Below are positions 5,836 through 24,593 of a stretch of 64,000 bases of DNA, in pieces. The notes below the pieces were generated by a model. The model had not been told where the DNA came from and made no database searches. It saw nothing but the letters and a program-made list of their open reading frames with translations. The DNA is from Candidatus Omnitrophota bacterium. GTDB lineage: Bacteria; Omnitrophota; Gorgyraeia; Zapsychrales; Fredricksoniimonadaceae. The stretch is from the NCBI GenBank assembly GCA_028865345.1, contig JAGWKL010000007.1, positions 6,089 to 70,088 on the forward strand. The letters are read 5' to 3'. Made by a program: the position numbers and the translations under genes. Position 1 is the first letter of the stretch, and the number at the start of each line of letters is the position of its first letter.

Positions 5836-7817
5836 TTCCCTACCTTGTACCGCCCTGATGTGTTTGTCGCCCAGAAATGCCCGCGCAAGTCTTCGATGCG
5901 GCTGCGGACAAAAATCTTGTTCTGGGAAAGATCATAACATGTCGAGGCAATGTTGGTCTGAGAACTAAAACAGTTGTTGGTTATTCCGTCGACACAAACT
6001 TCCACAGGGTTGGGGGTTTTTCCGTCATTGCCCACCGTGGCAAGCGGCGTCGTTCCGTTGCAAAACCGCCCGGTATTATTGCTCAGCTGGATGACCCGCT
6101 GTATCAGGTCGATCGAGTCCTTTTTGTTTTGGCTGCGCACAAACTGGTCGGTTTCAGGGTTATACATTTTCCCATCCTGGATCAACAAATACGTCCCCCC
6201 GCGGTTATCGGTGGCATTGGAGCTGTTCTTGGTAAAGGTAAACACCTGGGCGTTGGCCTGCAAACCGGGCTGCGGACCGCAGGAATTGGCGTCCCAAGCC
6301 CCGTCAATGTCTCCACCATCCGGATCTTCATAAGAAACCACCGGATAGCCGTTTGAGTCCGTGGAAAGATTATAAATGGTGACTTCCTTCAGCCTTCCGT
6401 CTATATCATAGGTCGGATAAACATGGTTGGAACTGCTTAGCCCGATCTCTGCCGCCGAGGTCCCTGCCGTGGCAGCCCATTGCCAGGCAACGTAGGCGCG
6501 CATGCAACTGCCGGGAGGATTGCATCCCGGATTGGGGAATTGATTTATCACGCCCGCCACCGATGTCGATGTTGCTCCATTGCTCCCATAGACCCCCATG
6601 CGCAAAAGATCATACTGCATGACCCCATTGATATTGGTGGATGCTCCAAGGCCGTCGGTGGTGGGATTGCCCCAATAATCAAGCAAAGGCATGTCCGTGG
6701 ACAGTTCTTTATTCATACAAGCTGAAGTGCCGTGCGCAGTACAAGTGGGGGCCGAAGTGCTGAAGGTCAAATTCGAAGAATTGGCCGACCCTCCCGCCCC
6801 GCCGGGATTGGCCACCAGGGTATAAAACAATTTGTATTGCCTGCTGCCCTGCTCGATAATGCCCTCGATCGCCGCTAAATATCCCACAGCCTGTTGCGCA
6901 GTGAGGTGAAATACATTTTCATAAAGCCCTTCAAACGTCGTCCACGGCGTTTGATTCCATGATGCGTTGACCGTCGCTTGAGAGGTAGCTTCATCGCACT
7001 TGCTGGTTGTCGTAGGTGAAATGACATGGGCATTGGCCAGTTCCGTGAAAATAGTACAGGCATTGTTGGCCTCTTGCAGCTCTCTTCCTGCCGTGGTGGT
7101 CGCGGTTATCGGCGCTACCGGAGGATCGTTGGTAACAAGCGCGCTTTCCTTAAGAATGCTCTGGCCTCCCCACTCCCTTTGATTGCGGCAGGTCTGGTTC
7201 ATTTTGCACTGGGCCTCGGCTTTTTGCTGGCAGTCCTGCGGATTTCCGCCGGCCGTCAGGCAATCTTCCTGCTCCTGAGCGGAAGATATCGGCTGGCTGT
7301 TTTTATCGCACATAGCGGTACCGCCCTGGCCCGGCGGATAAATGGTTTTCCCGGCAACATAAGAAGCCATGGTAAACGGGAAATGCTGCCCGTCGATATA
7401 CACATCCATGATGGGCAAACTATTGTCGATATCGGAGGGACTATTGTTATCGATGGGATAAAGAAGGTTATAGGAAAAGGTTCCCGAACCGGAGACCATG
7501 AATGGTGTGCGGTCCAAAGCCCCGTATTTGCCGAAACCGGGAACAAGTCTGTCTTCTACAAAAAGCACCGAGGCGCTGTTATGCGCGGTGACCTGCGGGC
7601 TCATGCCGGGATTGGCCTTGGAATCGTTCCACGAAGCCAGCATGGCCATGCGCATGGCCTTAAAACTGATGTCCTGCTGATAGCCGTTGCTCACAGCAGT
7701 GCGGATGATCGTCCCCAAAATAAAAATGAGGATGGCCCCGAACACGGCAAGCTCGGTGACGGCCTGTCCCGCCGCGGGTGCGGGGCCAGACGCTTTTTGA
7801 AGGTCTCGCTTGGACAT
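5832..7817 (-). CDS. TadG/TadE-like large pseudopilin (~662 aa)
   Basis: Track ORF 5832..7886. Start taken at MSKRDLQ (ATG at 7815-7817, ATGA overlap with the stop of the upstream pilin gene, AGGTAGGG RBS). N-terminus AGQAVTELAVFGAILIFILG is a TadE-like motif. Confidence 0.5.
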   Translation of the reverse strand: MSKRDLQKASGPAPAAGQAVTELAVFGAILIFILGTIIRTAVSNGYQQDISFKAMRMAMLASWNDSKANPGMSPQVTAHNSASVLFVEDRLVPGFGKYGALDRTPFMVSGSGTFSYNLLYPIDNNSPSDIDNSLPIMDVYIDGQHFPFTMASYVAGKTIYPPGQGGTAMCDKNSQPISSAQEQEDCLTAGGNPQDCQQKAEAQCKMNQTCRNQREWGGQSILKESALVTNDPPVAPITATTTAGRELQEANNACTIFTELANAHVISPTTTSKCDEATSQATVNASWNQTPWTTFEGLYENVFHLTAQQAVGYLAAIEGIIEQGSRQYKLFYTLVANPGGAGGSANSSNLTFSTSAPTCTAHGTSACMNKELSTDMPLLDYWGNPTTDGLGASTNINGVMQYDLLRMGVYGSNGATSTSVAGVINQFPNPGCNPPGSCMRAYVAWQWAATAGTSAAEIGLSSSNHVYPTYDIDGRLKEVTIYNLSTDSNGYPVVSYEDPDGGDIDGAWDANSCGPQPGLQANAQVFTFTKNSSNATDNRGGTYLLIQDGKMYNPETDQFVRSQNKKDSIDLIQRVIQLSNNTGRFCNGTTPLATVGNDGKTPNPVEVCVDGITNNCFSSQTNIASTCYDLSQNKIFVRSRIEDLRGHFWATNTSGRYKVGN

Positions 7818-8134
7818 CAGTTCCCTACCTGTGTAGTGCCCGACTTCGTTTCCAAAGTATTCGACGTATCGATCCGGCTTGTCCATTCGCCGTAGGCGCT
7901 GTTATAGCTGCCCGGAGCGACCTGGACAATGGACGTCGCATTGGACTGTGTCGCGTACAGTATATTGGAATTGACCCATTGAGGGTCATACTGGCCGCCT
8001 ATCTCATCTGACGATGATTTCCAGCGGCCCTGAATGCCCCTTTTGACATAGTCCTTCATGGCCACCAGCACTCCGAGGATGATGATCATGATCACCGTGT
8101 ATTCCAGAATTGTCTGTCCTCGTATGTTTCGCAT
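7817..8134 (-). CDS. flp: Flp-type pilin paralog 8 (105 aa)
   Basis: MRNIRG|QTILEYTVIMIIILGVLVAM: Flp prepilin motif G/XXXXEY followed by a hydrophobic helix. Confidence 0.65.
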   Translation of the reverse strand: MRNIRGQTILEYTVIMIIILGVLVAMKDYVKRGIQGRWKSSSDEIGGQYDPQWVNSNILYATQSNATSIVQVAPGSYNSAYGEWTSRIDTSNTLETKSGTTQVGN

Positions 8135-8149
8135 AGGCCTTGGTCCTTA

Positions 8150-8506
8150 TTATTGTGGTGAAAACCCTCCGTTGGTAATGGTGTTGGTCATTGTCACAGA
8201 AGCCTCACTATAACCCGTCGTCGCCATGAAATGAGTGACGCCGCTGCCATTAATATACCCCGTTTCCGCGTTCCAATCGCCGGTGGTGGCGCCCATCTGC
8301 GTATTCGATGCCAGCATAAATCCTGTCTGGGGATTGGTAAAATCCTGGTCGGCGTTCTGCTGACTGCCCACCTGGTCCGCCGTCACCTTGACCAGGCTCT
8401 GCACCCCGCGCTTGATGCCCGTGCCCATATAATAGAGCGCCACCATCACCAGGCTGACGAGGATGGCGTATTCTACTATTGTCTGTGCATTGCGGGTAAA
8501 AACCAT
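8150..8506 (-). CDS. flp: Flp-type pilin paralog 7 (118 aa), Ala at -1
   Basis: MVFTRNA|QTIVEYAILVSLVMVALYY: Flp motif with Ala instead of Gly at -1. Confidence 0.6.
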   Translation of the reverse strand: MVFTRNAQTIVEYAILVSLVMVALYYMGTGIKRGVQSLVKVTADQVGSQQNADQDFTNPQTGFMLASNTQMGATTGDWNAETGYINGSGVTHFMATTGYSEASVTMTNTITNGGFSPQ

Positions 8507-8515
8507 TCAGTCCTT

Positions 8516-8935
8516 TCATGTCGCACAACCGGTCCCGTCACTGCAACACGGCGGCGGATTGGAACTGCTGCATACCGGAGGTAATTGGTGGCTGATGGAG
8601 GATATGTTGCTTGTGTCATTCACGGAACTGATATAGACCGCTCCCAGTTCCCCTGCGCTGCCGTTTGTTATTCCTTGATGATTGTCTGAATTCCGTTGCA
8701 CATCCGAGAAGGTCTGCATGTAATACGGTTCATATCCCCAGGAAACCCCGTTGGAAGCGGCCTGGCAATTGACATCGCAGGCATTGGCCGCCATCTCGAT
8801 CGCAAAGTTCCTGGCATCATGGATCCGCGCCTCAAAGGCCCTCCTCACCAGCACGGTCATAGCTGTCAGGGCCGCAACCACTATGAAGAAAACCATGACA
8901 TGCTCTGCCAAAATCGCTTGACCTTTGTCATTCAT
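8516..8935 (-). CDS. flp: Flp-type pilin paralog 6 (~139 aa) with Cys-rich C-terminus
   Basis: Track ORF 8516..8962 begins at a TTG. Better start is ATG at 8935 (MNDKG|QAILAEH) with AAGGTGAGG RBS. Motif has H instead of Y. C-terminus PPVCSSSNPPPCCSDGTGCAT. Shares ARIHDA and YEPYYMQ motifs with the pilin at 9613..9981. Confidence 0.55.
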   Translation of the reverse strand: MNDKGQAILAEHVMVFFIVVAALTAMTVLVRRAFEARIHDARNFAIEMAANACDVNCQAASNGVSWGYEPYYMQTFSDVQRNSDNHQGITNGSAGELGAVYISSVNDTSNISSISHQLPPVCSSSNPPPCCSDGTGCAT

Positions 8936-8968
8936 GCCCCGCCTCACCTTCTCCAAAGACAAACGGCC

Positions 8969-9166
8969 TCACATCCCATTCGCCGCATTTTCCTGCAAGT
9001 AGGTGGCTGCGTTGAGCATCCCTTGGGTCGTCTGGTTGAACACGCTGTTCAAGCTGCTTTGAAAAGAACCTGTCCCCTTGCCTGTCGTGAACAGAACGAC
9101 CACCACGATCACGGCCGTGACCAGCAGGATGTATTCCACCAGGCTCTGACCTTTACGTGCGCGCAT
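8969..9166 (-). CDS. flp: Flp-type pilin paralog 5 (65 aa)
   Basis: MRARKG|QSLVEYILLVTAVIVVVVLF, canonical Flp motif; AGAGGA RBS. Confidence 0.7.
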   Translation of the reverse strand: MRARKGQSLVEYILLVTAVIVVVVLFTTGKGTGSFQSSLNSVFNQTTQGMLNAATYLQENAANGM

Positions 9167-9197
9167 GCGTTTGTCCTCTATTGACGGCCTATATCAA

Positions 9198-9223
9198 CGA
9201 GGGGGGAAGAAAATCCCCCCCTC
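9198..9223 (-). promoter_or_regulatory. Intra-operon GC hairpin between flp4 and flp5
   Basis: Perfect inverted repeat CGAGGGGGG-AAGAAAAT-CCCCCCTCG (9-bp G/C stem) in the 70-nt gap between the pilin genes at 9236..9574 and 8969..9166. Confidence 0.4.
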
Positions 9224-9235
9224 GTTTGGACTCTG

Positions 9236-9574
9236 TTAGGCGGCGGTGTTCCCTCCCCAGAATTCCTGCTGGGTGTTAAGGATGACCGAGTTCTCCGTCG
9301 TGTTGGTCGATTCACCCGACCCCAAGATGGAAGTCGAGGAATTTCCTGCGTTGAACACTTCTTCTGTATCGCTGGAAGTGTTGACGATCTTGATCACGTT
9401 GGTATTGCCGTCAGAATACTGGTCGCCGATATCGTCGGCGGCGCTCTTCAGGCGCCCCTGCACGCCGCGTTTGATATAGACCTGAAGGGTCAGCAAAGCG
9501 CCGACCACAACGACGATCATTACCGAGTATTCCAGGAAACTTTGACCGCGTTTTTGGTTAAGATATTGCAACAT
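9236..9574 (-). CDS. flp: Flp-type pilin paralog 4 (112 aa)
   Basis: MLQYLNQKRG|QSFLEYSVMIVVVVGALL; GGAGG RBS upstream. Confidence 0.7.
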   Translation of the reverse strand: MLQYLNQKRGQSFLEYSVMIVVVVGALLTLQVYIKRGVQGRLKSAADDIGDQYSDGNTNVIKIVNTSSDTEEVFNAGNSSTSILGSGESTNTTENSVILNTQQEFWGGNTAA

Positions 9575-9612
9575 AGGATTCCTCCTTAAAGATATATCGT
9601 TGAAGTCTTAGG

Positions 9613-9981
9613 TTATTCAGACTGTTGATTCCCGCTGTCATAATTACTGTACGTTTGATTCTCAGACCCGGTCCTGATCCTGTTGTTGGCGGAATCCTGT
9701 GCGACCAAGTCGTGCCCTAAGCGTTTAGCACTAACGCTGTTGCTGGATACGTCATAATTGCTCTGCATGTAATATGGCTCATACTGCGTGTCATTGCCCA
9801 GACCGATATCCGAGTTGCCGGTGGCATTGGCCATATACGTTGCTGCATCGTGGATACGGGCTTGTATGGCGCGCTGGGCATAGGTCTGCATGGCAATGAT
9901 GCCTGCGACCACCAGGGCGATCAAAAGCGCGTATTCCGCGAAGTGTTGTCCTTTTTTATTCTTAAGGAAATTTCTCAACAT
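9613..9981 (-). CDS. flp: Flp-type pilin paralog 3 (122 aa)
   Basis: MLRNFLKNKKG|QHFAEYALLIALVVAGII; GGAGG RBS. Shares ARIHDA..YEPYYMQ motifs with paralog 6. Confidence 0.7.
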   Translation of the reverse strand: MLRNFLKNKKGQHFAEYALLIALVVAGIIAMQTYAQRAIQARIHDAATYMANATGNSDIGLGNDTQYEPYYMQSNYDVSSNSVSAKRLGHDLVAQDSANNRIRTGSENQTYSNYDSGNQQSE

Positions 9982-10027
9982 AAGTTCCTCCTATATTAGT
10001 TCGTAGAGATTTTGTTTAAGCTCCTCG

Positions 10028-10276
10028 CTATTGAGTCGGATTGACACTATAGCCAGAGGGAGCGCCACTGTCGGTACTGGTGTATGCGCCATGTGAACCG
10101 GCATACTGTGACGTTTCACTGTTCATTTCCGTCACCGCCGCGTTGTAGGTGCTGTTGAGCGTGTTCTGGAACGGACCGTTTTTGCTGGTCACAAAGGCCA
10201 CAATAACGATAAGGACCGCGGTCACAACCAGGATGTATTCCACCGTGATTTGACCTCTTTTGTTCTTTATATGCAT
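10028..10276 (-). CDS. flp: Flp-type pilin paralog 2 (~82 aa)
   Basis: Track ORF 10028..10288 starts MEGIM, but GGAGGGGATTATG shows those codons are the RBS. True start is MHIKNKRG|QITVEY at 10276. Confidence 0.7.
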   Translation of the reverse strand: MHIKNKRGQITVEYILVVTAVLIVIVAFVTSKNGPFQNTLNSTYNAAVTEMNSETSQYAGSHGAYTSTDSGAPSGYSVNPTQ

Positions 10277-10348
10277 AATCCCCTCCAAAATTCCCGTACT
10301 GCATCCTCCACGTAAATTAAACGCCGTGTAAAGGAACAGGGAATATAG

Positions 10349-10504
10349 TTAATTCAACGAATCCTCAGTAATCATCTTCTGTTGGGCTTGCACGGAACGG
10401 AACACGTAGGTGCTCAACAGCGCCAAGGCTGCTGAGATCAAGGCCACGACGATCGCGTATTCGATCAAGTTTTGTGCTTTGATACCGTTTAATTTTCGGA
10501 TCAT
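10349..10504 (-). CDS. flp: Flp-type pilin paralog 1 (51 aa), not in ORF track
   Basis: Manually translated: MIRKLNGIKA|QNLIEYAIVVALISAALALLSTYVFRSVQAQQKMITEDSLN. 156 nt ATG..TAA, below the 60-aa cutoff of the track. Canonical-size Flp with Ala at -1. First gene of the pilin array. Confidence 0.6.
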   Translation of the reverse strand: MIRKLNGIKAQNLIEYAIVVALISAALALLSTYVFRSVQAQQKMITEDSLN

Positions 10505-10548
10505 CGCCCCTTACCTTTACGTGCCAGAAGATCAATTAGACCTTCCCC

Positions 10549-10567
10549 CTGCTTGTTGTTCAAGCAG
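10549..10567 (-). promoter_or_regulatory. Inverted repeat in 5' leader of first flp gene
   Basis: CTGCTTG-TTGTT-CAAGCAG (7-bp arms) about 45 nt upstream of the flp1 ATG. Confidence 0.3.
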
Positions 10568-10606
10568 GAGCGAGGAAAAACTAAAACACTAACTGGTCTT
10601 TCATCT

Positions 10607-10630
10607 ATGTAAAAGCCCCTAAGGGCTGTC
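10607..10630 (-). terminator. Putative rho-independent terminator after the 373-aa HTH gene
   Basis: On the minus strand, AGCCC-TTAG-GGGCT stem followed by TTTTACAT. Short 5-bp stem. Confidence 0.35.
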
Positions 10631-10733
10631 GGTACAATTGATGTTTACTTTGGTAGAAGTATGCCATATATAATAAAGCCTGTCAACCCCGCGGAAACAA
10701 AAATAACCCGCTCCCCGATTCGGCGACTAAAGC

Positions 10734-11855
10734 CTAATCTTTTAAAATTTCGACCTTAACCAGCCTATTTTGGTCATCATGCAGATACATCGCATTTAAT
10801 TTCTCTGCGGCTTCATTGAGCATGGTAATATTCTCATAACTATTTGTCGTTAATATGTTTATTATATTAATTTCACTGTTGACCTTGTCGAATCCTTTCA
10901 ACTTTAATATATTATCCATAACATCATCGTTTACATTATGTTGTGTAAAAAAAATGTCTTTTGCTCTCTCTGAAACATTCTTTTTATAGCTCTCCACAAA
11001 TACAATATCTTTTAACATAAAAACTCTTTTACACTCCACAATTTCATCGAAATATGCTATAACATTGTCTTTGTAATCCACTATCAAAATTTTTGTAATT
11101 TTGAGCCCGGCTTGAGCATCCATGCAAGATTTAAAAAGCATTTCATCCGAAACTCTATGAACTACCAGCGGCCGGATATTATTAATAAGCCCGTCCACTG
11201 CTTCCATGATGCAACGTTCAATGGGGAGCGGCAGATCAATAAAGACCTCCTTGTTGTTTTCCAAAACAACCTTGATCCCTTTACAGTATGTCAGGCAATA
11301 TTCCCAATCCGTTCCCTTGACGTTCTCTTCTGAGAAAATTCCTAAATCCCAAAGTGCCGCCCTTAAAAAAACCCTTCCGGCCCCGTCGTATTCCGCAGAA
11401 ATCTCAAAACTTTCGGGCTTGATTTGCCGTTCTTCTGTAATCGTCGGGGCTTTTTCTTCTTCCGTCGATCCGGGGCCGGAGGACGGAGGCTCTTTATGAA
11501 CGTTTAGATCCTGGCCGCCCGCCTCCATTTCCTGAGAAACGCCTTTTGCCGAATCCGGCAGTACGCTGACTTCAGGAATAATTGTTTCCGGCAGCAATTT
11601 GACTTGGGAAAGGCTGGCCTGAATCTGCCTCTTCTTCTCTTGAGGTATTTCAAACTTATTTTTTGGCTTACGGCCGCGAGGCGTCATGATGCCCGCCTCT
11701 TTGAGCACATCATGGACCGACGATTTGGAAAGTTTAAGTCCGAACTTTTGAGAGGCTGATTCAGCTAATTGGCGGCAGGAAGCAAGAGGGTTGGCTTGTC
11801 GCTGGTTTATGATGAATCCGACAACCTCTTCCTTTAACTTATAGGTAACACCCAT
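10734..11855 (-). CDS. Hypothetical protein with N-terminal HTH-like domain (~373 aa), AT-rich
   Basis: Track ORF 10734..11951. The first 32 codons are AT-junk overlapping the XRE gene, so start taken at MGVTYKLKEEVVGFIINQRQANPLASCRQLAE (HTH-like, ~70 aa). Then an acidic low-complexity linker and an unrecognised ~230-aa C-terminal domain. GC content far below surrounding genes. Confidence 0.4.
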   Translation of the reverse strand: MGVTYKLKEEVVGFIINQRQANPLASCRQLAESASQKFGLKLSKSSVHDVLKEAGIMTPRGRKPKNKFEIPQEKKRQIQASLSQVKLLPETIIPEVSVLPDSAKGVSQEMEAGGQDLNVHKEPPSSGPGSTEEEKAPTITEERQIKPESFEISAEYDGAGRVFLRAALWDLGIFSEENVKGTDWEYCLTYCKGIKVVLENNKEVFIDLPLPIERCIMEAVDGLINNIRPLVVHRVSDEMLFKSCMDAQAGLKITKILIVDYKDNVIAYFDEIVECKRVFMLKDIVFVESYKKNVSERAKDIFFTQHNVNDDVMDNILKLKGFDKVNSEINIINILTTNSYENITMLNEAAEKLNAMYLHDDQNRLVKVEILKD

Positions 11856-11938
11856 AAAATTCCGTTCATAATAATGTCCAGTCTGGACATTATTATAACA
11901 AAAAAATATGGAGAAACAATTTAAAAAAAGGAATGATT

Positions 11939-12217
11939 TTATATTTCCCACATAACAATATTTTCAGAACTACTTTTTGCTTCTTTGTTCTGTTTGTGGT
12001 TTGATTTGGATCGCAGAAGATTTACAGGAGTGGTTTTGAGGGCCTTGGCGAGTTTTTCAATATTCAGCAGGGTAATATTTATTTCCGCCCGCTCTATCAT
12101 TCCGATGTAATTCCGATGAAGGTCCGCAAGTTCGGCAAGTTTTTCCTGAGAAATCCCTTGCCTGCGCCGCTCCATCCGTATCTTCTTGCCGAAGCTTATA
12201 AGTAATCTTTTATTCAT
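11939..12217 (-). CDS. XRE-family helix-turn-helix transcriptional regulator (92 aa)
   Basis: RRRQGISQEKLAELADLHRNYIGMIERAEINITLLNIEKLAKAL is a classic Cro/C1-type HTH. AT-rich, co-located with the 373-aa HTH gene. Confidence 0.6.
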   Translation of the reverse strand: MNKRLLISFGKKIRMERRRQGISQEKLAELADLHRNYIGMIERAEINITLLNIEKLAKALKTTPVNLLRSKSNHKQNKEAKSSSENIVMWEI

Positions 12218-12525
12218 TGATTTCCCTAAATTTGCGTGTAGTATATATATTTACTTTCATTATTTCTACACAGCATCGTGTGGACTATTATATTAGTCAC
12301 AACATTAAGATAAGATGAAAAACAGGGTGAGGAGCAAAAGCGGAGAAAAGCGTGACTCTTCCCAAATCACGGCGTGAAATATTTAAGATCGACCAAATGA
12401 AAATGGTCTGGAAAATCGGGGACAACGAAGTCCGCTGCGACGGCGCGGTCCACTATGTCTGGGTCCCCTCTGCGGACCATGTGCAGCAAATCGGCCCCTG
12501 TGACTGCAAAAGCAAGTCCAAAAAA

Positions 12526-12861
12526 TCATAGCCGGACCTGGTCACCGATCCGTGTTTGAGAAGCAATGATGGTCCCCGCCGGCAATTCGATGGCGTAGGA
12601 TGCCCGGAAGAATACCGGCGACAGGCGGAAAGGTTTGATCCCCTCGCAAAGCCCCACCACCTTGTCCTTCCGGTCGCAAAAGATCACATCAATAGGAAAT
12701 TTCATAAAAAACATATGGATGGATTCGCAATGGGGAATGACCAGGGCGTGATTCAGGGGGAGTTGGGTCCTTCCAAGCAATCCCTTCGAACGCTGCCAGA
12801 AATTCCGGGCGGTTTCGACGGAGGAGGCAATAACGGTGTCGCGGGTTGCGTTACAGATCAT
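12526..12861 (-). CDS. DUF192 (COG1430) family protein (111 aa)
   Basis: Sequence family resemblance only. 4-nt overlap with the upstream CpaE-CpaF gene suggests translational coupling. Confidence 0.45.
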   Translation of the reverse strand: MICNATRDTVIASSVETARNFWQRSKGLLGRTQLPLNHALVIPHCESIHMFFMKFPIDVIFCDRKDKVVGLCEGIKPFRLSPVFFRASYAIELPAGTIIASQTRIGDQVRL

Positions 12862-15023
12862 ACGCCGGCGGGGGCCTCAAAAATGGTCTTGCTGATCGAA
12901 ATCCCGCGGGTGGTCAGGTCTTCAAAACATTTGGGCACATAGCCGGTGGCCGCGTATTCCCCCATGTTCCGGCCTTCTGCGTCGACGCCTTTCTGGACGA
13001 ACACAAAGATGTCCTTGATCTCCGGAAGACCTTCCACCATCTTTCCGGTCAGCTCGGAGATCTGGGTCACCTTGCGCGACCCGTCGGAAAAACGGTTGAT
13101 CTGCACAATGATGTGGATCGCTGAGGCGGCCATCTCATAAATAGCGCGCAGCGGCAGTTCGATGCCCGACAAAAGGACCATGGACGACATACGCGACAGG
13201 GTGTCCCTGGTCGTATTGGCATGCAGGGTCGTCAGGGACCCGTCGTGACCGGTATTCATGGCCTGCAGCATGTCCAGCACTTCGGGCCCGCGGCACTCGC
13301 CGATGATGATCCTGTCCGGACGCATACGCAGCGTATTGACGAAAAGCTCCCTGATCGTCACCTTGCCCCGGCCTTCGATGTTGGCCGGACGGCTTTCCAG
13401 CCTCGCCCAATGTGTTTTGACCAGGCGCAATTCCGCTGCGTCTTCGATGGTGATAATGCGTTCATTGTCCGGGATGAAATGGGAAATGATGTTCAGAAGC
13501 GTCGTTTTACCCGCGCCCGTCCCGCCGGAGACGACGATGTTCCTGCGGCCGATAACGCAGGCGTTCAGAAAATCCGCCATGGGCTGCGAAAGGCTTTTGA
13601 ACCGCGTCAGCAAGTCCTCAATGGTATAGCGGTCCTGTGAAAATTTACGCACGGTGATCATGGGCCCGTTCAGGGACAACGGCGGGATGATCGCGTTGAT
13701 ACGGGACCCGTCGGACAGGCGCGCGTCGACCATCGGGGTCGATTCGTCCACACGACGGCCTAAAGGAGCTATGATACGGTCGATCGTGGCGCGGACCTGA
13801 TCGTTGGAAATAAACCGCTTGTTGGTCAAATAAATCTTGCCGTTTTTTTCTATGAAGACCTCGTCTTTATTATTGACCATGATGTCCGTGACGCTTTCGT
13901 CGGCCAGAAAGTCTTCCAGAGGGCCAAGCCCCAAAGCTTCGTCGACGATTTCCTTGACTATTTTAGCGCGTTCCTCATGGGTGGAAAGGAAGGTCCCCGA
14001 GGCCTCCGCCAAAAGCTCGGTGACGACTTTTTCGGCGGCCCTGCGCAGGTTGGCGACTTGGGCAGGATCATTCAAGACCTCCTGCGACATTTTCTGCAGG
14101 TTCATGCGCTCAACCAAACCGTTATGCACGGCGCGCTTGACTTTAATGACCTCGTCTTCCTCTTTTTTGAAATCGACCCCGGCATCGACGCCCGCAGGCG
14201 TGATGCCGAATTTCTCCCAAAAGGCGTTGCTCTTTTGGCCCGATTCATCCCCGGTGGCACGCACCCTGAGGACATCGCTGGCCTGCACATACAGCTTATC
14301 ATCGTTGAGCGCATGGGCGATCTCAAAAAAACATTCCGACACCTTTGCCTTCGGGCTGTCCATGACACAGGGAACGCCCCGGTTGAGGGCGAGGCCCACC
14401 GTCTTGCCGTCAGAAGGTATCAAAGAGAAAACGTCGCAGGCCAGGGCTTTCTTGACCTCCTGCCAGGCGACACCGCCGCGGCTTTCGGCGCGGTTTAAAA
14501 TCAGGTTTACCATCTTCAACGGATAATGCAAGCCCTGGAGGATGTCCAGGCAGGTCTTCACCTGGTAAACCGCCAGGACATCGGGAGTGCCGACCAAAAA
14601 AATGAGGTTGGAAGAATCCAGGACGCTGATGAAGCTTTCACTGAAGGTGCTTCCTCCGTCGACAATAATGCAGTCGAATTGAGGGGCCGCCTTCTTGAAA
14701 AACAGACGCAGATTATCGGAGGTGATGTGGCCGATCTGCTGGGGGGTTCTTACCGCAGGCAGGAAACACAGGCCGCTCGGGTGGGGGATGCATTTGCCCT
14801 TCAGCGTCTCAGGCGATCTCTCCAGGTCCGCCAAAATATCGACCAGGCAAAGCGACGGTTGCAAATTCAGCATGCGCGACATGTCCTGGGAAGCCTGAAG
14901 ATTCAGGTCAACGATCAGTGTCTTTTTGCCCTTAAGGCTAAGCGCACAGGCTATATTGACGGCAATAAAGGTCTTTCCAACCCCTCCTTTGTTGCCGAAT
15001 ATGGTAATGATTCTGGCCGCCAT
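12858..15023 (-). CDS. cpaF: CpaE/TadZ-like ParA ATPase fused to CpaF/TadA secretion ATPase (721 aa)
   Basis: N-terminal ~260 aa: IITIFGNKGGVGKTFIAVNIACALS is the MinD/ParA deviant Walker A typical of CpaE/TadZ. C-terminal ~460 aa: GGTGAGKTTLLN Walker A, GECRG, TGHDGSLTTLHAN His-box are T2SS-E/CpaF/TadA hallmarks. No receiver-like domain. Confidence 0.75.
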   Translation of the reverse strand: MAARIITIFGNKGGVGKTFIAVNIACALSLKGKKTLIVDLNLQASQDMSRMLNLQPSLCLVDILADLERSPETLKGKCIPHPSGLCFLPAVRTPQQIGHITSDNLRLFFKKAAPQFDCIIVDGGSTFSESFISVLDSSNLIFLVGTPDVLAVYQVKTCLDILQGLHYPLKMVNLILNRAESRGGVAWQEVKKALACDVFSLIPSDGKTVGLALNRGVPCVMDSPKAKVSECFFEIAHALNDDKLYVQASDVLRVRATGDESGQKSNAFWEKFGITPAGVDAGVDFKKEEDEVIKVKRAVHNGLVERMNLQKMSQEVLNDPAQVANLRRAAEKVVTELLAEASGTFLSTHEERAKIVKEIVDEALGLGPLEDFLADESVTDIMVNNKDEVFIEKNGKIYLTNKRFISNDQVRATIDRIIAPLGRRVDESTPMVDARLSDGSRINAIIPPLSLNGPMITVRKFSQDRYTIEDLLTRFKSLSQPMADFLNACVIGRRNIVVSGGTGAGKTTLLNIISHFIPDNERIITIEDAAELRLVKTHWARLESRPANIEGRGKVTIRELFVNTLRMRPDRIIIGECRGPEVLDMLQAMNTGHDGSLTTLHANTTRDTLSRMSSMVLLSGIELPLRAIYEMAASAIHIIVQINRFSDGSRKVTQISELTGKMVEGLPEIKDIFVFVQKGVDAEGRNMGEYAATGYVPKCFEDLTTRGISISKTIFEAPAGV

Positions 15024-15140
15024 AATGAATTTTTATTGTACCATATTTTTTGATTTTGTCGCAGATAAAAAAGAGGTCGCTTTGCCTTCCCCCTAACTCG
15101 GGAGGTAGCGTGTCCCTTTGATGAAATTCTAATGGCAAAA

Positions 15141-15300
15141 TTCTTTCTCGGCGTCGGCTCGCAGGGGGGCAAATTTCTTTTGAACATCAGCTTGCACAGG
15201 GGTAAATTCTTTTTGGACATCAGCCTGCAAAGGGGCGAATTCTTTCTCGGCGTCGGCCCTCAGGGGAATAAATTCTTTCTCAACATCTGCCGCCTGCAGT
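15141..15300. repeat. 33-bp tandem repeat (~4.8 copies) forming 11-aa repeats in ORFs on both strands
   Basis: Units TTCTTTCTCGGCGTCGGC..CAGGGG..AAA alternate between A/B subtypes (A-B-B-A-B). Minus frame gives ADxEKEFxPLx repeats (track ORF 15129..15611). Plus frame gives GKFFLxISLxR repeats (track ORF 15132..15476, ATG start, GC3 ~74% versus ~45% on the minus frame). Confidence 0.6.
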
Positions 15301-15429
15301 TCACGGCATTGGGGCCCTTTGGCCTTATCACAGGGGCTTTGTGCGGAAGCGCCCGAAGAAATCTGTGCCCCGCAAGGGCAAGGGACGCAAAGGATCAACC
15401 AGAAAATTACTGTAGTCAGGTACAGGTAA

Positions 15430-17235
15430 TTACGAAGCAAAGCCCTTCTCCGCCGGAGATTGACCGTCAGGGTTAAAAACAATAGGAACCGTAAATTCAA
15501 GTTCTCGCTGGTCCATCCCCGGGCTAAAGGCGGCAAAAGGAGCGGCTGATTTAGCGGCCTGCATGGCGTCCTGATCCAGGACATTGCTTCCCGAAGACTG
15601 GGCCACGTCAATAGAATCCAGGGAGCCGTCTTTAAGGATATGCAGCTTCAATTTGACCGTGCCTCCCAGCTCGGCGCCGCCCACCGGCCGGGGATAAATG
15701 AGGGTCCTTGAAATCTTTTCCTGGACCATGCGTGCATACGCTGTCGCGGCCGGGAGCCCTTTCAAATTCTCAACGGGTAGGGGTGCCGGCGCTGAATAGG
15801 CCGCGGTGTATTGCGGCGCCAATGGAAAAGAAGGAGAATACGTCTCCGGATTTTCCGAGGGAGCGGTAGGAGCCGGCTTGGCCGGCCAATCGGAAACGAT
15901 GGGCGCGTGTTCATACCTCGAAACTATTTCATTCCAGGAACTGCGCTCCTCGGACGTCGGCATCACCAGTTCTTTTTGCGCGTATTTCGTTTGCGTCAGC
16001 ACCGTCGGCGTCAAAATAATGACCATTTCCGTATTGGCATCCGCGGGCTCGCTTTTGTTTCTGAAAAGCCCCCCTAAAAGCGGAATTTTAGATAAAAACG
16101 GCACATCGGTCTCATTCACGCTGTCTTCATATTTGATCAGCCCCGCCAGGGCAATGGTCTGCTTGTTGTCCATCAGCAGGTCCGTCGAAGCTGTCCGGGT
16201 GACAAAGGCCACGTTGCCCCCATTGCTGGATATGGGAGTGGCTGAATCCACGTCCCGGATGTCCACGTTTAACTGCACATCTATTTTTCCGTCTTGAATG
16301 GTCGGAGTGACCGACAGGTTGACGCCGTATTGGGCATAGGTCGTGTTATTGGTCAGGGTGCTGCCAGTGGTGCTCACTGTTGTGGATTGGATGGGGATCT
16401 CGCCGCCTACCAGGAAACTGGCAGGCTTGCCGCTTTCCACCACCAACCGCGGCTTGGAAATCAGCCTGGCCTTGCCTTCCTTGACCAAGGCATTCACCGT
16501 GGCTTCCAGCGACGTAGTGCGCATGAAGTGCCCTATCTTGAACAAATCCTTGAACTTGTCTCCCGTGGGAAGGGTTTCTCCATAGTTAAGGTTCACCTGC
16601 CCGCTGTTGCTTGTCCCGGTTGAGCCCGTTGTGCCCGAAGAAGAAGTCCCCCACGATATCCCCAATTCTCTTTCCAGGGTCACGTTGATCTCCACGATCT
16701 GCATGTCCACCTGGATCAATTCGTTGTTCTTTTCTTTCTCGACCAGATTCAACAAATTATCGCTATACGGCGTCAGGACGTCCGCCATCCGGTTTTTGTT
16801 GTCTTCAGACAAGGAGCCTGTGAGCACCACCTTGCCTATATCGAGATTTATATCTTCGGAAACCCCTTTGACGCCGGCTTCCTTCAGGAGCTCCTGCACA
16901 AGGGCCTTGAGGGCGTTGAGGTCCTGGGCGGCCACGCGAACCTTGACGCTGTGTTTGCCGCCCGCATCCCAGAAAAACAGGACCGTTGAGCCGGCTTTCT
17001 TGGCTATCAGGGAAACTTTATCGTTCTGAACGTCTGAAATGTCCGCCACCGAGGGGTCGGTCACCGAGACCCGGGTCAACCCGCTGGCAGGGACCGACTG
17101 GATGTCGCCCACCACCATGTCAATAACGTCTGCCGACTGCATATCATCGTCGGCAGATAACGGCGGCATATATGCCACTGATACCGCAAGGCCAAACGCG
17201 ACGATAAAAATTTTCCGTAAAAGGTTGGATTTCAT
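15430..17235 (-). CDS. cpaC: CpaC/RcpA-type secretin with C-terminal Pro-rich linker and TonB_C-like domain (601 aa)
   Basis: N-terminal pilus-formation domain. Secretin C-terminus (DVPFLSKIPLLGGLFRNK..TEMVIILTPTVL) ends near residue 415. Then PAKPAPTAPSENPETYSPSFPLAPQ linker and YARMVQEKISRTLIYPRPVGGAELGGTVKLKLHILKDGSLDSIDVAQSSGSNVLDQDAMQAAKSAAPFAAFSP resembling a TonB C-terminal domain. Confidence 0.7.
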   Translation of the reverse strand: MKSNLLRKIFIVAFGLAVSVAYMPPLSADDDMQSADVIDMVVGDIQSVPASGLTRVSVTDPSVADISDVQNDKVSLIAKKAGSTVLFFWDAGGKHSVKVRVAAQDLNALKALVQELLKEAGVKGVSEDINLDIGKVVLTGSLSEDNKNRMADVLTPYSDNLLNLVEKEKNNELIQVDMQIVEINVTLERELGISWGTSSSGTTGSTGTSNSGQVNLNYGETLPTGDKFKDLFKIGHFMRTTSLEATVNALVKEGKARLISKPRLVVESGKPASFLVGGEIPIQSTTVSTTGSTLTNNTTYAQYGVNLSVTPTIQDGKIDVQLNVDIRDVDSATPISSNGGNVAFVTRTASTDLLMDNKQTIALAGLIKYEDSVNETDVPFLSKIPLLGGLFRNKSEPADANTEMVIILTPTVLTQTKYAQKELVMPTSEERSSWNEIVSRYEHAPIVSDWPAKPAPTAPSENPETYSPSFPLAPQYTAAYSAPAPLPVENLKGLPAATAYARMVQEKISRTLIYPRPVGGAELGGTVKLKLHILKDGSLDSIDVAQSSGSNVLDQDAMQAAKSAAPFAAFSPGMDQRELEFTVPIVFNPDGQSPAEKGFAS

Positions 17236-17240: not shown

Positions 17241-18089
17241 TTAAAGTTCCCTGCCGCCTCTAAAAATCTGGATCATGGGCTTGCTTTCTTCCGGCTTGGC
17301 TGTGGGCACTTCATCCGGGTTCTCAAGATCTAGCCCCTGGTTTTTCAGGACATAGTCCGCCAGGGTCTTCCATGTGTCTGCTTTGACCATTCGATGTTCC
17401 ATATCATCAGGTGAACGCAACGCCAGGTCCAGCTTGCCGTTTTTATCCGCAAATTCCAAAAGTCCTGCTTCCTGAGGACTCACCGCAAAAGTGATTTTCA
17501 GGGAATTGGCCGCCTGCTGCTTATCATAGTCGCCCAAGTCTTCCTCATTGGTATTAACGGCCAGGACCTGCAGGTCCTGGAAAACCATCGCCGTCACGGT
17601 TTGCTTATTGGCATATTGCGACGGGACGCTCATCTCGCCGATCACATCCACAAAATCCCCCGGATTGATCATGCCCCCCACGGCGGCGAGCGAATCGATC
17701 TTCACCGTCACGGCGCGCATGCCCACCGGCGTCCTTAAGGCCAGCGACGGCTTGTGGGCTTCTTTTTTGACACTCACCTGCGTCTGCGGCCGCATCTTAG
17801 ATATTTGCTGCTCGGAAATCTTCAGCGCGGCGATTTGTGTCTTTAATTGCTGTTCCTCCTGGCTTTTTTCCCGTTGCATTTCCTGCGCCAGTTGGGCCAT
17901 TTGCTGCTGGTCTTGCTGCTGGATCGCGGAGACCATTTCCTTTTCTTTGGAGGCGTACTGTTCAGCCAGGGCCTGGGTCTTGTTGTTAATCGCAGTTTGG
18001 ACGTAATTGCTGGCCAAAAACACCGCCACCAGCCCTAAGGCCAAAGCGCCGAGGATAATGAAAAGTTGCTTTTTGTTTTCGAAAGGCAA
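17241..18089 (-). CDS. cpaB: Flp pilus assembly protein CpaB/RcpC (282 aa)
   Basis: N-terminal TM (LFIILGALALGLVAVFLA), Gln-rich coiled-coil, SAF-like segment GMRAVTVKIDSLAAVGGMINPGDFVDVIG. Confidence 0.65.
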   Translation of the reverse strand: MPFENKKQLFIILGALALGLVAVFLASNYVQTAINNKTQALAEQYASKEKEMVSAIQQQDQQQMAQLAQEMQREKSQEEQQLKTQIAALKISEQQISKMRPQTQVSVKKEAHKPSLALRTPVGMRAVTVKIDSLAAVGGMINPGDFVDVIGEMSVPSQYANKQTVTAMVFQDLQVLAVNTNEEDLGDYDKQQAANSLKITFAVSPQEAGLLEFADKNGKLDLALRSPDDMEHRMVKADTWKTLADYVLKNQGLDLENPDEVPTAKPEESKPMIQIFRGGREL

Positions 18090-19366: not shown

Positions 19367-20371
19367 TTACGATAGAATAAGCTCAGATACGGCCCTTTTT
19401 TCCGCCAAAAGCTCCTCCAGGGTTGCTTTGATCTTAGCAAGGGCAAATTCATTATGTTGAATGCCCTGAACTACGGAACATTGGCCGCCGTCTGAACGCA
19501 AAGGAAGCCCGAACATGAGTCCGGGTTCGACGCCATAGCTGCCGTCCGAAGGGACCGCGGCTGAAAAAAACTCTCCTGCCGGTGTCGGGGTGATGATGGA
19601 ACGCACGGTGTCGATGACCGCATTGGCCGCAGATGCCGCAGATGAAAGGCCGCGGGCCTTGATGACGGCGGCCCCCCGTTTCTGCACGCCTTCAATGAAG
19701 GAGCCCTTAAGCCATGCTTCGTCCTTGATTACGTCGACGGACGGACGGCCGTCGACGGTCGCATGATAAAAGTCCGGGTACTGGGTGGCCGAATGGTTGC
19801 CCCAAATGGCCACGTTCCTTACCCGCCCGACGGGAACCCCGGCTTTTTGGGCCAGCTGGGCTGCCGCCCGGTGGGCGTCGAGCATAGTCATGGCAAAAAA
19901 ATTCTTTGCAGGGATGTTCTTACAAACGCTCTTGGCTATATAGGCGTTGGTATTGCAGGGATTGCCGACGACCAGGACTTTGGCGGTGGGCTTGGCGCTT
20001 TCAGACAACGCCTTGCCCTGCACCGTAAAAACGCCCCCGTTGATTTTCAGCAGATCGCCGCGTTCCATCCCCTCTTTGCGCGGCACGCTGCCGACAAGCA
20101 GGGCCCAATCGACATCTTTAAAAGCGGCCTTCGCATCCGCGGACACGGAGACTGAACGCAACAAAGGAAACGCGCAATCCTCCAGTTCCATGATGACGCC
20201 GTTGAGCGCCGGCAAAGCTTTTTCCAGTTCCAATAGTTTCAAGTCGATTTCCGTATCACTGCCGAACATTTCTCCGGCGGCAATACGAAATAAAAGCGCA
20301 TAACCGATCTGCCCCGCCGCTCCTGTCACGGCAACTTTAATGCGTTTAGACATATTCACCCCTTTTTCCAT
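19367..20371 (-). CDS. mdh: Malate dehydrogenase (NAD-dependent)
   Basis: [22 protein letters not shown] Rossmann motif, IWGNHS, MDH-type active-site region. True start may be MSKRIK at 20353. Confidence 0.8.
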
Positions 20372-20403
20372 TTGGCCGGATTGACAGGCACTCGAAAGAC
20401 GGT

Positions 20404-21198
20404 TTATTTTATAATTCCCGGCAAAGACTGCCTTGCTTTTTTGACTTCCCGAAGATCAATCTGCCCAAAAACAATTTCCTGGCCCTTCGGCGAGCCGCAG
20501 GCCGTGACCTCGCCCCACGGCGAGACGATCATGCTGTGGCCATGCGCCTCTATGCCGCGGCCGTCTGTACCGACCTGGGCGGGCGCCAGCACATAGGCCA
20601 AATTTTCAATGGCCCGGGCGCGCAGCAGGGTTTCCCAGTGGGCCTGGCCGGTTTTTTTGGTAAAACACGACGGCACTGTTAAAACCTCGACCCCTCGGCG
20701 GGCATACCGTTGATAGAGACCGGGAAAGCGTACATCGTAACAGATCGAGAGCCCGGCCCTGAATTCCCCTATTTTGACCGTCGTGATTTTGTTCCCCGGA
20801 AGGAAACTGCCCGCCTCCCGGATTATTTTATCACCGAGACGGGCATCGAATAAATGGATTTTGCGGTATTTGGCGGAAATGCTCCCGCCGGAGTCAATAA
20901 CGACTGAAGTGTTGTAGGCGTATCCGGCGCCTGCTTTCTCTATAATAGAACCCAACAAAAGACAGGCTTTATATTTTTGAGCTAAAGGAAAGAAGGCCCT
21001 GACCGAAGGGCCGGGCACCGGCTCGGCGGCTTCTTGAAGGATCTGTTTGTTATCGGCCCCGGCGCGGAAATTAAAAACTTCCGGCAAAAGAACAAACCGG
21101 GCGCCTTGGGCAAGCGCCTCTTGAACCATGCCTGTGGCGCGTTTAAGATTGTCCGCTTTGTCTTGGGCCGAGCAAAACTGTATGAGAGCTACCTTCAA
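20404..21198 (-). CDS. Carbon-nitrogen hydrolase family protein
   Basis: MKVALIQF..EVF, catalytic-triad-like E/K/C context (CYD) of the nitrilase superfamily. Confidence 0.6.
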
Positions 21199-21232
21199 GA
21201 TTCCCTGTTTTTTGGTTATCGCGAGGTTTATT

Positions 21233-21904
21233 TTAATGCGTCGCAGGAGCCTGCGCCCCGGCTTTTAGGGACGCTTTCAGCATTTCACCATATTCTTTAT
21301 AGCAACTTGTATAGAAAGACCGCTTCTTGAGCCCTGCACGCCAGGCCGTTAATTTAGGATAAGCGCTGAGATCAATTCGGGCCATCTCCGCAGGCTCCAG
21401 CAGGGCCATGAGGACAATGTCGGCCAGCGATATCTCATCGGCGACAATATATTCGTGCCGGGCCAATTGGTTCTCAATGACAGGAAAATATTGCTTCAAA
21501 AATTCCAGACCGTCGGTGATGGCTTTGTCATTGACGGGGAGGCCCCTCAAAGGCGCAAACAGGCGGTTAAAAACCACCGGGATGAAATTGGCGCCGATGT
21601 GCAGGGTGGCATAATCGATCCATTGGTCGACGAGAGCGCGCGCCTTTGTGTCTTTGGGATAAAGGGATGAGCCGTGTTTGTCGCAAAGGTACTTGCAGAT
21701 GGCATTGCTTTCAAATAAATAAAAGCCGTCATCGTCCATGGCGGGGACCTTGCCTACGGGATTGATCTTCAAAAACCATTCACTTTTTTGCTCGCGTTCC
21801 CGCAAATTGAGGTGCCGCCACGTATAATCCAATCCCAAAAAGCTTGCCGTTAAACGGGCCTTGATGGCCGGGCCTGACAGGTCTGAGCCGTAGATGGTGA
21901 GCAT
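21233..21904 (-). CDS. Glutathione S-transferase family protein
   Basis: N-terminal thioredoxin-like GST fold (SGPAIKARL..PVGKVPAM..ESNAI) plus C-terminal helical domain. Confidence 0.6.
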   Translation of the reverse strand: MLTIYGSDLSGPAIKARLTASFLGLDYTWRHLNLREREQKSEWFLKINPVGKVPAMDDDGFYLFESNAICKYLCDKHGSSLYPKDTKARALVDQWIDYATLHIGANFIPVVFNRLFAPLRGLPVNDKAITDGLEFLKQYFPVIENQLARHEYIVADEISLADIVLMALLEPAEMARIDLSAYPKLTAWRAGLKKRSFYTSCYKEYGEMLKASLKAGAQAPATH

Positions 21905-21975
21905 ATTCCCTCCTTAGATAGCGGCGCCGCGAAAGCTGCCGGCGGGCAGGCAGACACCGCCTTCCTTGAATTGAG

Positions 21976-22053
21976 TGGCGACCCCAACGGGATTTGAACC
22001 CGTGCTGCGAGCTTGAAAAGCTCGTGTCCTGACCAGGCTAGACGATGGGGTCG
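21976..22053 (-). tRNA. tRNA-Glu: tRNA-Glu (anticodon TTC), CCA encoded
   Basis: Cloverleaf folded by hand: acceptor CGACCCC/GGGGTCG, anticodon loop TTTTCAA, T-loop TTCAAAT. Confidence 0.75.
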
Positions 22054-24578: not shown

Positions 24579-24593
24579 GAAGCGGCCTTTCTA

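Follow-up and report, generated by a model that had tools for sequence, protein, structure and literature searches.

Is the motor ATPase of a Tad/Flp-type pilus joined to its TadZ partner in one polypeptide in Omnitrophota, and if so, what does the arrangement share with Tad systems elsewhere? The question is raised by a single gene in a 64,000-nucleotide stretch of a Candidatus Omnitrophota genome (assembly GCA_028865345.1, contig JAGWKL010000007.1, positions 6,089 to 70,088), referred to here as the window. A preliminary description proposed that positions 12858-15023 of the window encode a CpaE/TadZ-like ParA ATPase fused to the secretion ATPase CpaF/TadA. The results presented here indicate, with a probability of roughly 0.8, that the gene encodes a TadZA-type fusion ATPase, in which the TadA/CpaF motor of an Omnitrophota Tad/Flp-type pilus is tethered to a TadZ-like domain by a flexible linker of approximately 45 residues.

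The gene and its two ATPase modules

The gene lies on the minus strand, a point on which the preliminary description was silent, and runs from an ATG at 15023 to a stop codon at 12858-12860. The proposed span was correct; it holds exactly 721 codons plus the stop in one open reading frame (ORF), and no credible internal translation start that would give a separate TadA was found within this ORF. All four motifs named beforehand are present. The deviant Walker A motif GNKGGVGKT occupies residues 10-18 (14970-14996, minus strand) and supplies the signature Lys12, the P-loop Lys17 and Thr18. In the TadA half, the Walker A motif GGTGAGKTT (residues 500-508; 13500-13526, minus strand) is followed on the same strand by the Asp box IEDAAEL (residues 526-532), the motif GECRG containing the Walker B glutamate (residues 575-579) and the His box TGHDGSLTTLHAN (residues 591-603).

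Profile searches assign these motifs to two modules. The Pfam family CbiA matches residues 6-204 (E 8.9e-14), AAA_31 and ParA/NUBPL match residues 4-236, and T2SSE matches residues 364-640 (E 5.8e-57). The MinD models of NCBIfam cover residues 3-246, and a TadA-family model covers residues 325-656. A domain scan of the kind suggested earlier thus matches CbiA/AAA_31 in the N-terminal part and T2SSE in the C-terminal part. Together with the homologues and the ORF test described below, this layout bears out the proposed union of a ParA/MinD-type ATPase and TadA/CpaF in a single polypeptide. The reported absence of a receiver-like domain also holds, since a P-loop that begins at residue 10 leaves no room for one.

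The AF2 (AlphaFold2) model of the fusion, built on a 54-sequence alignment of the family, has a mean pLDDT of 72 and a pTM of 0.41, a modest value as expected for two tethered modules. It comprises a ParA fold, a disordered linker and the TadA domains, as anticipated for a fusion of this kind. Residues 1-245 (14289-15023, minus strand) form a confident ParA-type alpha/beta fold and correspond to the ParA/MinD-type ATPase domain, which is TadZ-like and receiver-less. The inter-domain linker (residues 246-289, approximately 45 residues; 14157-14288) occupies the position of the disordered N-terminal segment NTD0 of CpaF. Residues 258-289 have a pLDDT below 50 and are predicted to be a disordered stretch, which holds the motif FWEKFG (residues 268-273; 14205-14222) and one short helix at residues 265-271. 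A three-helix bundle resembling N-terminal domain 1 (NTD1) of CpaF follows (residues 290-364; 13932-14156), with helices at residues 291-307, 320-341 and 349-364, and leads into the two lobes of TadA, NTD2 and the C-terminal ATPase domain (residues 365-721; 12861-13931).

The TadA half is closely related to CpaF. CpaF structures 8RJF, 9E24 and 8RKD rank highest in a Foldseek search of the PDB with the fusion model, at 42-43% identity, and a phmmer search of the PDB likewise returned 9E24/8RJF as the closest solved relative (E 9e-110). Caulobacter crescentus CpaF has the same NTD1, NTD2, C-terminal domain, Walker A, Asp box, Walker B glutamate and His box (8RJF, 8RKD, 9E24; PMC11300603). Residues 1-79 of CpaF constitute the disordered NTD0, and residues 80-149 form the three-helix bundle of NTD1 (PMC11300603). 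The alignment opens at fusion residue ~294, equivalent to CpaF residue 84 within NTD1. The fusion therefore amounts to a ParA-type domain placed on the N-terminal end of an NTD0-like linker; where CpaF begins with NTD0, the window protein has its ~45-residue linker with a whole ParA-type domain ahead of it. With the best NCBIfam TadA model, TIGR03819 (TadA family, conjugal transfer-associated), the protein reaches 320 bits, short of the cutoff of 373, but this shortfall is no argument against a general TadA identity because the model targets one TadA subfamily.

Conservation was measured in an alignment of 54 members of the fusion family. In the N-terminal domain, three residues are the same in every member, namely the signature lysine K12, D39 of switch I and D122 of Walker B, and K17 is kept in 53 of the 54. 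The second switch-I position is Asp in 36 members and Asn in 18, the window protein being among the latter with Asn41. Across the TadA Walker A motif, Asp box, GECRG and His box, the only positions that vary are A504 of Walker A (47/54) and the flanking I526 (51/54) and L600 (50/54). The conserved site residues argue for purifying selection on both nucleotide sites. Conservation is lowest in the linker, yet this segment contains almost no indels. Its motif is a partial exception: F268 and W269 of FWEKFG are invariant, and K271, F272 and G273 are each conserved in at least 90% of members. FWEKFG is confined to Omnitrophota-type proteins; Bdellovibrionota-type linkers carry another motif, [RK]L[KAS]xLx[KR]P, directly after the ParA domain. 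The spacing from the end of the ParA domain to the GLGPLE motif is 82-128 residues in 42 fused proteins.

Distribution of the fusion and alternative explanations

An identical protein is encoded on three contigs, and the two shown belong to different NCBI assemblies, both with the label Candidatus Omnitrophica. The architecture of the window protein recurs in more than 100 separate 90%-identity clusters that are 62-100% identical to it; nearly all are 715-727 residues long with the same Pfam set. The contigs that encode fusion homologues reach 1.3 Mb, and the few shorter matches come from short contigs. When 50%-identity representatives were searched exhaustively with HMMER, many matched from end to end in a single stretch. 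Among the best 149 of these representatives, at least 62 contain both domains, always with the ParA-like domain before TadA; in these two-domain representatives the ParA-like domain is preceded by at most 25 residues, and none has a receiver domain. Database labels of fusion homologues vary between 'TadA', 'CpaF' and 'MinD', and such proteins merit recognition as two-domain TadZA.

To what extent other phyla share the architecture was addressed with a taxonomic scan of one genome per GTDB species, which yielded 80 loci; four further Omnitrophota loci (L001-L004) were fetched separately. The tblastn footprint spans residues ~3-715 of the query in most of the 80 loci (~60 diverse genomes), as if fusion were near-universal. 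This footprint is misleading because the ATPase domain of TadZ is C-terminal and tadA begins 4-40 nt further on, so that separate genes look alike. An explicit ORF test led to rejection of near-universal fusion, as most loci contain adjacent separate genes. Single two-domain ORFs were found in Omnitrophota (L005-L007), in Bdellovibrionota/Oligoflexia (L008, L009, L012, L013, L015 and L023, the last being Bdellovibrio sp. HCB288), in Elusimicrobiales (L033), in WOR-3 (L067) and in two unclassified metagenome-assembled genomes (MAGs; L010 and L042). The remaining 67 loci consist of 53 with adjacent separate tadZ and tadA, and 14 in which TadA has another N-terminal extension or none that was detected. 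In the 53 separate loci the matching ATPase domain lies in the C-terminal half of a TadZ of ~390-800 residues, and tadZ ends 4-40 nt upstream of tadA. The statement that TadZ and TadA are normally separate proteins is thus upheld.

The architecture is known from another phylum. An 'atypical TadZA fusion ATPase' was described in Bdellovibrio bacteriovorus in July 2026, in which a flexible linker connects TadA to a ParA/MinD-like TadZ region that lacks the atypical receiver domain (bioRxiv 10.64898/2026.07.08.737194). The Bdellovibrio protein shows dynamic behaviour with a bias towards the invasive pole, its TadZ region plus linker binds the polarity hub RomR, and tadB follows tadZA (bioRxiv 10.64898/2026.07.08.737194). 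The novelty implied by the preliminary description therefore does not stand, given this precedent and the wide occurrence of the fusion in metagenomes. For Omnitrophota, Tad clusters have been reported in Velamenicoccia, with TadB and TadC, one of these clusters lying where the V. archaeovorus genome begins (Seymour et al. 2023, PMC10066038). The fusion is not mentioned in that study or in a 2026 Omnitrophota genome preprint, and no publication describing it for Omnitrophota was found in the searchable literature. The fusion is genuine, and it appears to be unreported for this phylum.

The preferred reading of the N-terminal domain is that it is of TadZ type, though divergent and receiver-less. 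By sequence, its nearest entry in the PDB is 3EA0 (63 bits, with Aquifex MinD at 59 bits), which is also its best fold match by Foldseek (target TM-score 0.91, root-mean-square deviation 2.0 Å); MinD, FlhG, FleN and Soj rank below it, at target TM-scores of 0.72-0.85. The same structure is the best ParA-type PDB match of the Bdellovibrio TadZA N-terminal domain (63.6 bits) and of two stand-alone TadZ controls, from Rugamonas (110.9 bits) and Thermovenabulum (67.3 bits); the N-termini of the controls match receiver/CpaE structures, solved CpaE receiver domains in the case of the Rugamonas protein. The likeness to TadZ/CpaE proposed earlier is in keeping with this agreement of sequence and fold. 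3EA0 was taken as TadZ-type from its KGGDGGS loop and its top rank with the TadZ controls. Presumably it is the TadZ structure of Xu et al. 2012; none of the papers searched pairs 'TadZ' with '3EA0'.

Sequence and position provide further support. TadZ has a Walker A consensus of K/RGGxGxS/T (bioRxiv 10.64898/2026.07.08.737194), to which KGGVGKT at residues 12-18 conforms. TadZ is also recognised by its place immediately upstream of tadA, and the N-terminal domain holds exactly that place, fused. The ATPase domain begins at residue ~135-560 in stand-alone TadZ, after a receiver-type region, and within ~55 residues of the start in all fused forms. The separate TadZ exceptions without a receiver are L080 and L083, with L021 and L054 cut at the contig end. 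A complete KGGxGK[ST] loop was considered as a hallmark of fused forms and rejected, being carried by stand-alone TadZ of Bacillota and Actinomycetota and missing from the WOR-3 fusion.

Three alternatives to this reading have to be considered. The first is that adjacent tadZ and tadA were wrongly merged by assembly, frameshift or gene calling, which a gap of just 4-40 nt in most genomes might invite, as a single indel could join the two genes in a MAG. However, the same ORF occurs in two independent assemblies of the organism, in more than 100 clusters down to 62% identity and in dozens of 50%-identity representatives, and it is uninterrupted on the complete chromosome of Bdellovibrio sp. HCB288. 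Simple read-through would keep the receiver region of ~130-280 residues that is found in stand-alone TadZ, and every fused form is without it. Moreover, the full-length fusion protein has been detected experimentally in B. bacteriovorus (bioRxiv 10.64898/2026.07.08.737194). Related genomes, which the preliminary description had named as a check of the junction, thus give no sign of a frameshift, and the near absence of indels from the linker agrees with them; a frameshift or assembly artefact, with a probability close to nil, was rejected on the recurrence of the ORF across assemblies, clusters and genomes. A different objection is that the N-terminal domain is not derived from TadZ at all, but is a MinD/FlhG-like ATPase recruited independently, a convergent look-alike that possibly couples the motor to the membrane or the division site. 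The domain has the full MinD-type KGGVGKT loop, and the MinD models of NCBIfam, which has no dedicated TadZ model, give it 75-80 bits, below their cutoffs of 202-213. It had been stated beforehand that failure to match ParA/CpaE models would count against the fusion; the ParA-type Pfam models do match, but the CpaE-homologue model TIGR03815 gives only 28 bits, compared with 66-80 for the TadZ controls and the Bdellovibrio N-terminal domain. The lead of 3EA0 over Aquifex MinD is a mere ~4 bits, and the clade of fused N-terminal domains has bootstrap support of 4/100. Nevertheless, in 53 other loci the tadZ ATPase holds exactly this position with respect to tadA, stand-alone TadZ of Bacillota and Actinomycetota likewise shows KGGxGKT and equal MinD-model scores, and 3EA0 is the best match by both sequence and fold, just as for true TadZ controls. 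The domain has no MinD-type C-terminal membrane-targeting helix and the gene has no minC or minE neighbour. When the Soj protein of the window serves as outgroup in a neighbour-joining tree, every fused N-terminal domain falls among TadZ domains. Recruitment of a MinD-like ATPase is therefore considered unlikely, and a TadZ-type origin is preferred.

The third alternative concerns history rather than identity, and is harder to set aside: fusion may have occurred independently in Omnitrophota, in Bdellovibrionota and in WOR-3/Elusimicrobiota, as a recurrent convergent solution and not as one inherited subtype. Both domain trees were built by neighbour joining only. In the TadA-domain tree the fused proteins fall into at least three to four groups (Omnitrophota; Bdellovibrionota; WOR-3/Elusimicrobiales/L042; L010), and a split of fused proteins from the rest appears in 0 of 100 bootstraps. 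Linker sequences and motifs vary by lineage, the downstream gene is DUF192 in Omnitrophota and TadB in Bdellovibrio, the adjacency of tadZ and tadA makes repeated fusion easy, and TadA also accepts N-terminal additions of other kinds (FHA, tandem TadA and a possible TadZ-TadA-TadB ORF). On the other hand, all fused branches of the TadA tree lie outside a large assemblage of separate genes, and in the N-domain tree the 15 fused sequences, and no others, form one group, again at 4/100. Fused forms have in common the loss of the receiver, the 82-128-residue spacing to GLGPLE and the order CpaB-secretin-fusion, and Omnitrophota TadB/C group with those of Bdellovibrionales (Seymour et al. 2023, PMC10066038). 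A single origin, examined with trees of both domains, found support of 0/100 and 4/100. Independent fusion is accordingly a serious contender, though rated at somewhat below even odds, and a common origin with the Bdellovibrio fusion is not established.

Several other observations were made among the homologues. L006 (CAYZPQ010000129.1), labelled 'uncultured Planctomycetales', encodes a fusion 73% identical to that of the window with the same PPIase-CpaB-secretin/TonB_C synteny, and this contig is probably mis-binned Omnitrophota. An Eremiobacterota MAG (L061, CAWCIZ010000003.1) contains at 8684-12529 on the plus strand a 1282-residue stop-to-stop ORF with CbiA at residues 316-503, T2SSE at 648-923 and T2SSF at 1114-1239, an apparent, unchecked TadZ-TadA-TadB triple fusion with an N-terminal region of ~300 residues. 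Five proteins among the best matches (P0121, 1156 residues; P0122, 1605 residues; P0123; P0126; P0148) have two to four tandem TadA/T2SSE modules and represent either true tandem motors or merged gene calls. Myxococcota TadA homologues (L065, L044) carry an N-terminal FHA domain in the place of TadZ, which offers another route by which the Tad motor can acquire a regulatory or targeting module.

Comparison with known systems and proposed operation

The closest known counterpart of the window protein is Bdellovibrio TadZA, which is likewise a single polypeptide with a receiver-less TadZ region, a flexible linker and TadA. The protein of Bdellovibrio sp. HCB288 is collinear with the window protein at 39% identity over 720 residues (E 2e-169), has a similar Pfam layout (CbiA ~10-213, T2SSE ~352-631), and shares the complete KGGVGK[ST] loop. 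The Bdellovibrio locus reads RcpC/CpaB, secretin (BON), the 740-residue CbiA plus T2SSE protein, T2SSF and RHS, so the upstream order RcpC/CpaB-secretin-fusion is common to both. The two differ downstream, where the window has DUF192 and a pilin array and Bdellovibrio has tadB; in the linker motif (FWEKFG as opposed to [RK]L[KAS]xLx[KR]P); and in the secretin tail, which is TonB_C in the window and a BON domain in Bdellovibrio. In addition, the N-terminal domains alone are only ~27% identical, and that of the window is weak on the CpaE-homologue model.

Stand-alone TadZ/CpaE proteins of the Aggregatibacter actinomycetemcomitans, C. crescentus and E. rectale type likewise present a ParA/MinD-superfamily domain with the Walker A K/RGGxGxS/T immediately before tadA, and have 3EA0 as the closest solved structure in common with the window N-terminal domain. 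Nearly all of those sampled have an atypical receiver domain at the N-terminus, whereas the window protein lacks one and is covalently joined to TadA; it also keeps the P-loop lysine that is lost in TadZ of Pseudomonadota and Acidobacteriota. MinD, FlhG and FleN share with the window domain the fold, the signature lysine of the deviant Walker A, the switch I Asp and the Walker B Asp. Unlike them, the window domain lacks a C-terminal amphipathic membrane-targeting helix, its genes nearby are neither Min nor flagellar, and it scores far below the MinD family cutoffs of ~200 bits.

By analogy with CpaF, the TadA half would assemble into a hexamer and, acting through TadB/C, power extension of the pilus and possibly its retraction. 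This would place six ParA-like domains on each hexamer, at a fixed 1:1 stoichiometry. Because the MinD-type signature lysine is kept, ATP-dependent sandwich dimers of the tethered domains are possible, and up to three could form per hexamer. Recruitment or positioning of the motor would in this way be coupled to the nucleotide state of the ParA domains. With the receiver domain missing, the cue for localisation or assembly would be supplied in trans; the docking surface would probably consist of the TadZ domain and the lineage-specific linker motif FWEKFG, much as RomR engages TadZ plus linker in B. bacteriovorus. It is plausible that the fusion hard-wires the TadZ-TadA interaction, as the preliminary description suggested and as has been proposed for Bdellovibrio TadZA (bioRxiv 10.64898/2026.07.08.737194). 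An altered targeting mechanism is also plausible, given the absence of a receiver domain and the lineage-specific motifs of the linker.

Some points weigh against this interpretation. In addition to the low CpaE-homologue score, the narrow lead of 3EA0 over MinD and the bootstrap values already given, the RomR analogy may not transfer to Omnitrophota because these and Bdellovibrionota have no conserved linker sequence in common. Hydrolysis at the window protein's own ParA site may be slow, judging from Asn41, which replaces the second switch-I Asp of MinD and of two thirds of the family. Hexamer formation, dimerisation of the ParA domains and partner docking are all inferred for the Omnitrophota protein. 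Finally, the window itself provides no platform partner: a phmmer comparison of 152 candidate TadB/C ORFs from other loci with its six-frame translation returned no T2SSF homologue, and Pfam scans of the window ORFs examined revealed no T2SSF protein, no prepilin peptidase and no receiver or RomR-like protein.

The earlier suggestion that the fusion may compensate for an 'altered platform' finds no support. In a relative whose fusion is 71% identical (L003, on a 1.34-Mb contig), the gene order is the same and a T2SSF gene of TadB/C type closes the syntenic cluster at about +12 kb, a position that corresponds to beyond the left edge of the window. TadB and TadC are reported in Velamenicoccia Omnitrophota (PMC10066038), and the Bdellovibrio fusion has TadB directly after it.

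A bolder possibility, regarded as unlikely, is that TadZA constitutes one ancient, distinct Tad subtype of host-dependent or predatory lineages, in which the ParA domains dimerise across neighbouring subunits of the hexamer and, through the conserved FWEKFG linker helix, gate the activity or direction of the motor. FWEKFG would here sit where 'Helix 0' of CpaF NTD0 lies near the nucleotide pocket. In CpaF, deletion of NTD0 lowers retraction, and the short Helix 0 was modelled near that pocket (PMC11300603). If this were true, the fusion would be a built-in switch, more than a tether, in Omnitrophota, Bdellovibrionota and perhaps Elusimicrobiota and WOR-3.

Whether tether or switch, TadZA fusions make up a large family and are no oddity of Bdellovibrio, with at least 62 50%-identity clusters and members in Omnitrophota, Bdellovibrionota, Elusimicrobiales and WOR-3. 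The fusion is mainly of use for comparative and structural studies of how TadZ and TadA connect. In cryo-electron tomography of Caulobacter, the outer cytoplasmic ring is unassigned, CpaE having no more than candidate status (PMC12637624). A fusion that occurs in nature fits a position of TadZ beside TadA, and natural 1:1 TadZ-TadA fusions could serve as reagents for structural work on the contact between TadZ/CpaE and the motor. The motor architecture held in common with Bdellovibrio adds to earlier hints of related Tad systems (PMC10066038).

The surrounding Tad locus

The fusion gene is part of a Tad cluster whose order on the minus strand is gyrB, gyrA, GST, nitrilase, MDH, PPIase, CpaB, secretin, fusion, DUF192, an HTH gene, a 405-residue ORF and pilins. 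Nine pilins are followed on the same strand by ORFs of 684/661, 87, 913 and 986 residues. The CpaB/RcpC pilus assembly protein (17241-18089, minus strand) matches Pfam RcpC and NCBIfam TIGR03177 (113 bits against a cutoff of 71). The RcpA/CpaC-type secretin (15430-17235, minus strand; 579 residues on the parent contig, 15430-17169) matches Secretin and T2SS-T3SS_pil_N and ends in a TonB_C domain. A TonB_C tail on the Tad secretin was detected solely in Omnitrophota (the window, L003, L005, L006 and L007) among the 84 loci examined.

Immediately downstream of the fusion lies a DUF192 gene (12526-12861, minus strand), which overlaps the fusion stop by 4 nt. DUF192 (COG1430) also occurs within a few kb downstream of tadA in many other loci (e.g. 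L011, L014, L025, L027, L037, L059 and L066), and Tad loci with it belong to Bacillota, Acidobacteriota, Chloroflexota, Pseudomonadota and Omnitrophota. DUF192 as a fusion-specific partner was rejected, since it accompanies Tad loci in many phyla; its recurrence near tadA suggests an unrecognised accessory role in Tad systems.

The pilins are nine small Flp-like paralogues with class-III signals, in a tandem array (7817-10504, minus strand) with N-terminal motifs of the form G/A-Q-x-x-x-E-Y/H. The four distal ORFs (24-7886, minus strand) gave no informative Pfam match. Those of 684/661, 87 and 913 residues have pilin-like hydrophobic N-termini, and the 913-residue protein is Cys-rich with C-terminal repeats of the type CGTCGxVC. 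For the 986-residue protein a signal peptide is probable, and it contains a single Big_7 Ig domain. These products are candidate tip or adhesin components. Omnitrophota are ultra-small and are suspected predators or parasites. This strongly conserved origin-proximal Tad cluster, with its many pilin paralogues and large Cys-rich proteins, is the leading candidate for the Omnitrophota host-attachment apparatus.

Between DUF192 and the pilin array, a low-GC stretch at 10400-12300 (37-49% against ~54% in the flanks) includes the HTH gene, an HTH_3 regulator (11939-12217, minus strand), and the 405-residue ORF (10734-11951, minus strand), which has only faint transposase-HTH similarity. The relative L003 has a 493-residue unannotated gene in this position and no HTH gene. 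The stretch may be an insertion or a lineage-specific regulator.

A 103-residue ORF lies between the secretin and the fusion (15129-15440, minus strand) and consists of tandem ~10-residue repeats, A-D-x-x-K-E-F-x-P-L, that arise from ~30-nt DNA repeats. It is missing in L003, where the secretin gene abuts the fusion gene, and it is either a real gene or an intergenic repeat. Between this ORF and the fusion, a promoter-like site, GCGACA-16-TACAAT with a TG-extended -10 (15035-15062, minus strand), ends 12 nt upstream of the fusion ATG, and a terminator-like hairpin lies 3' of the secretin gene; both are consensus matches only.

The Tad cluster adjoins the chromosomal origin region, which spans 19367-34150 of the window. 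On the minus strand this region carries dnaA (28577-29923), dnaN, gyrB and gyrA, and on the plus strand yidC, parA (Soj; 32436-33224) and parB. The order gyrB-gyrA-GST-nitrilase-MDH-PPIase-Tad is kept in the 71%-identical relative.

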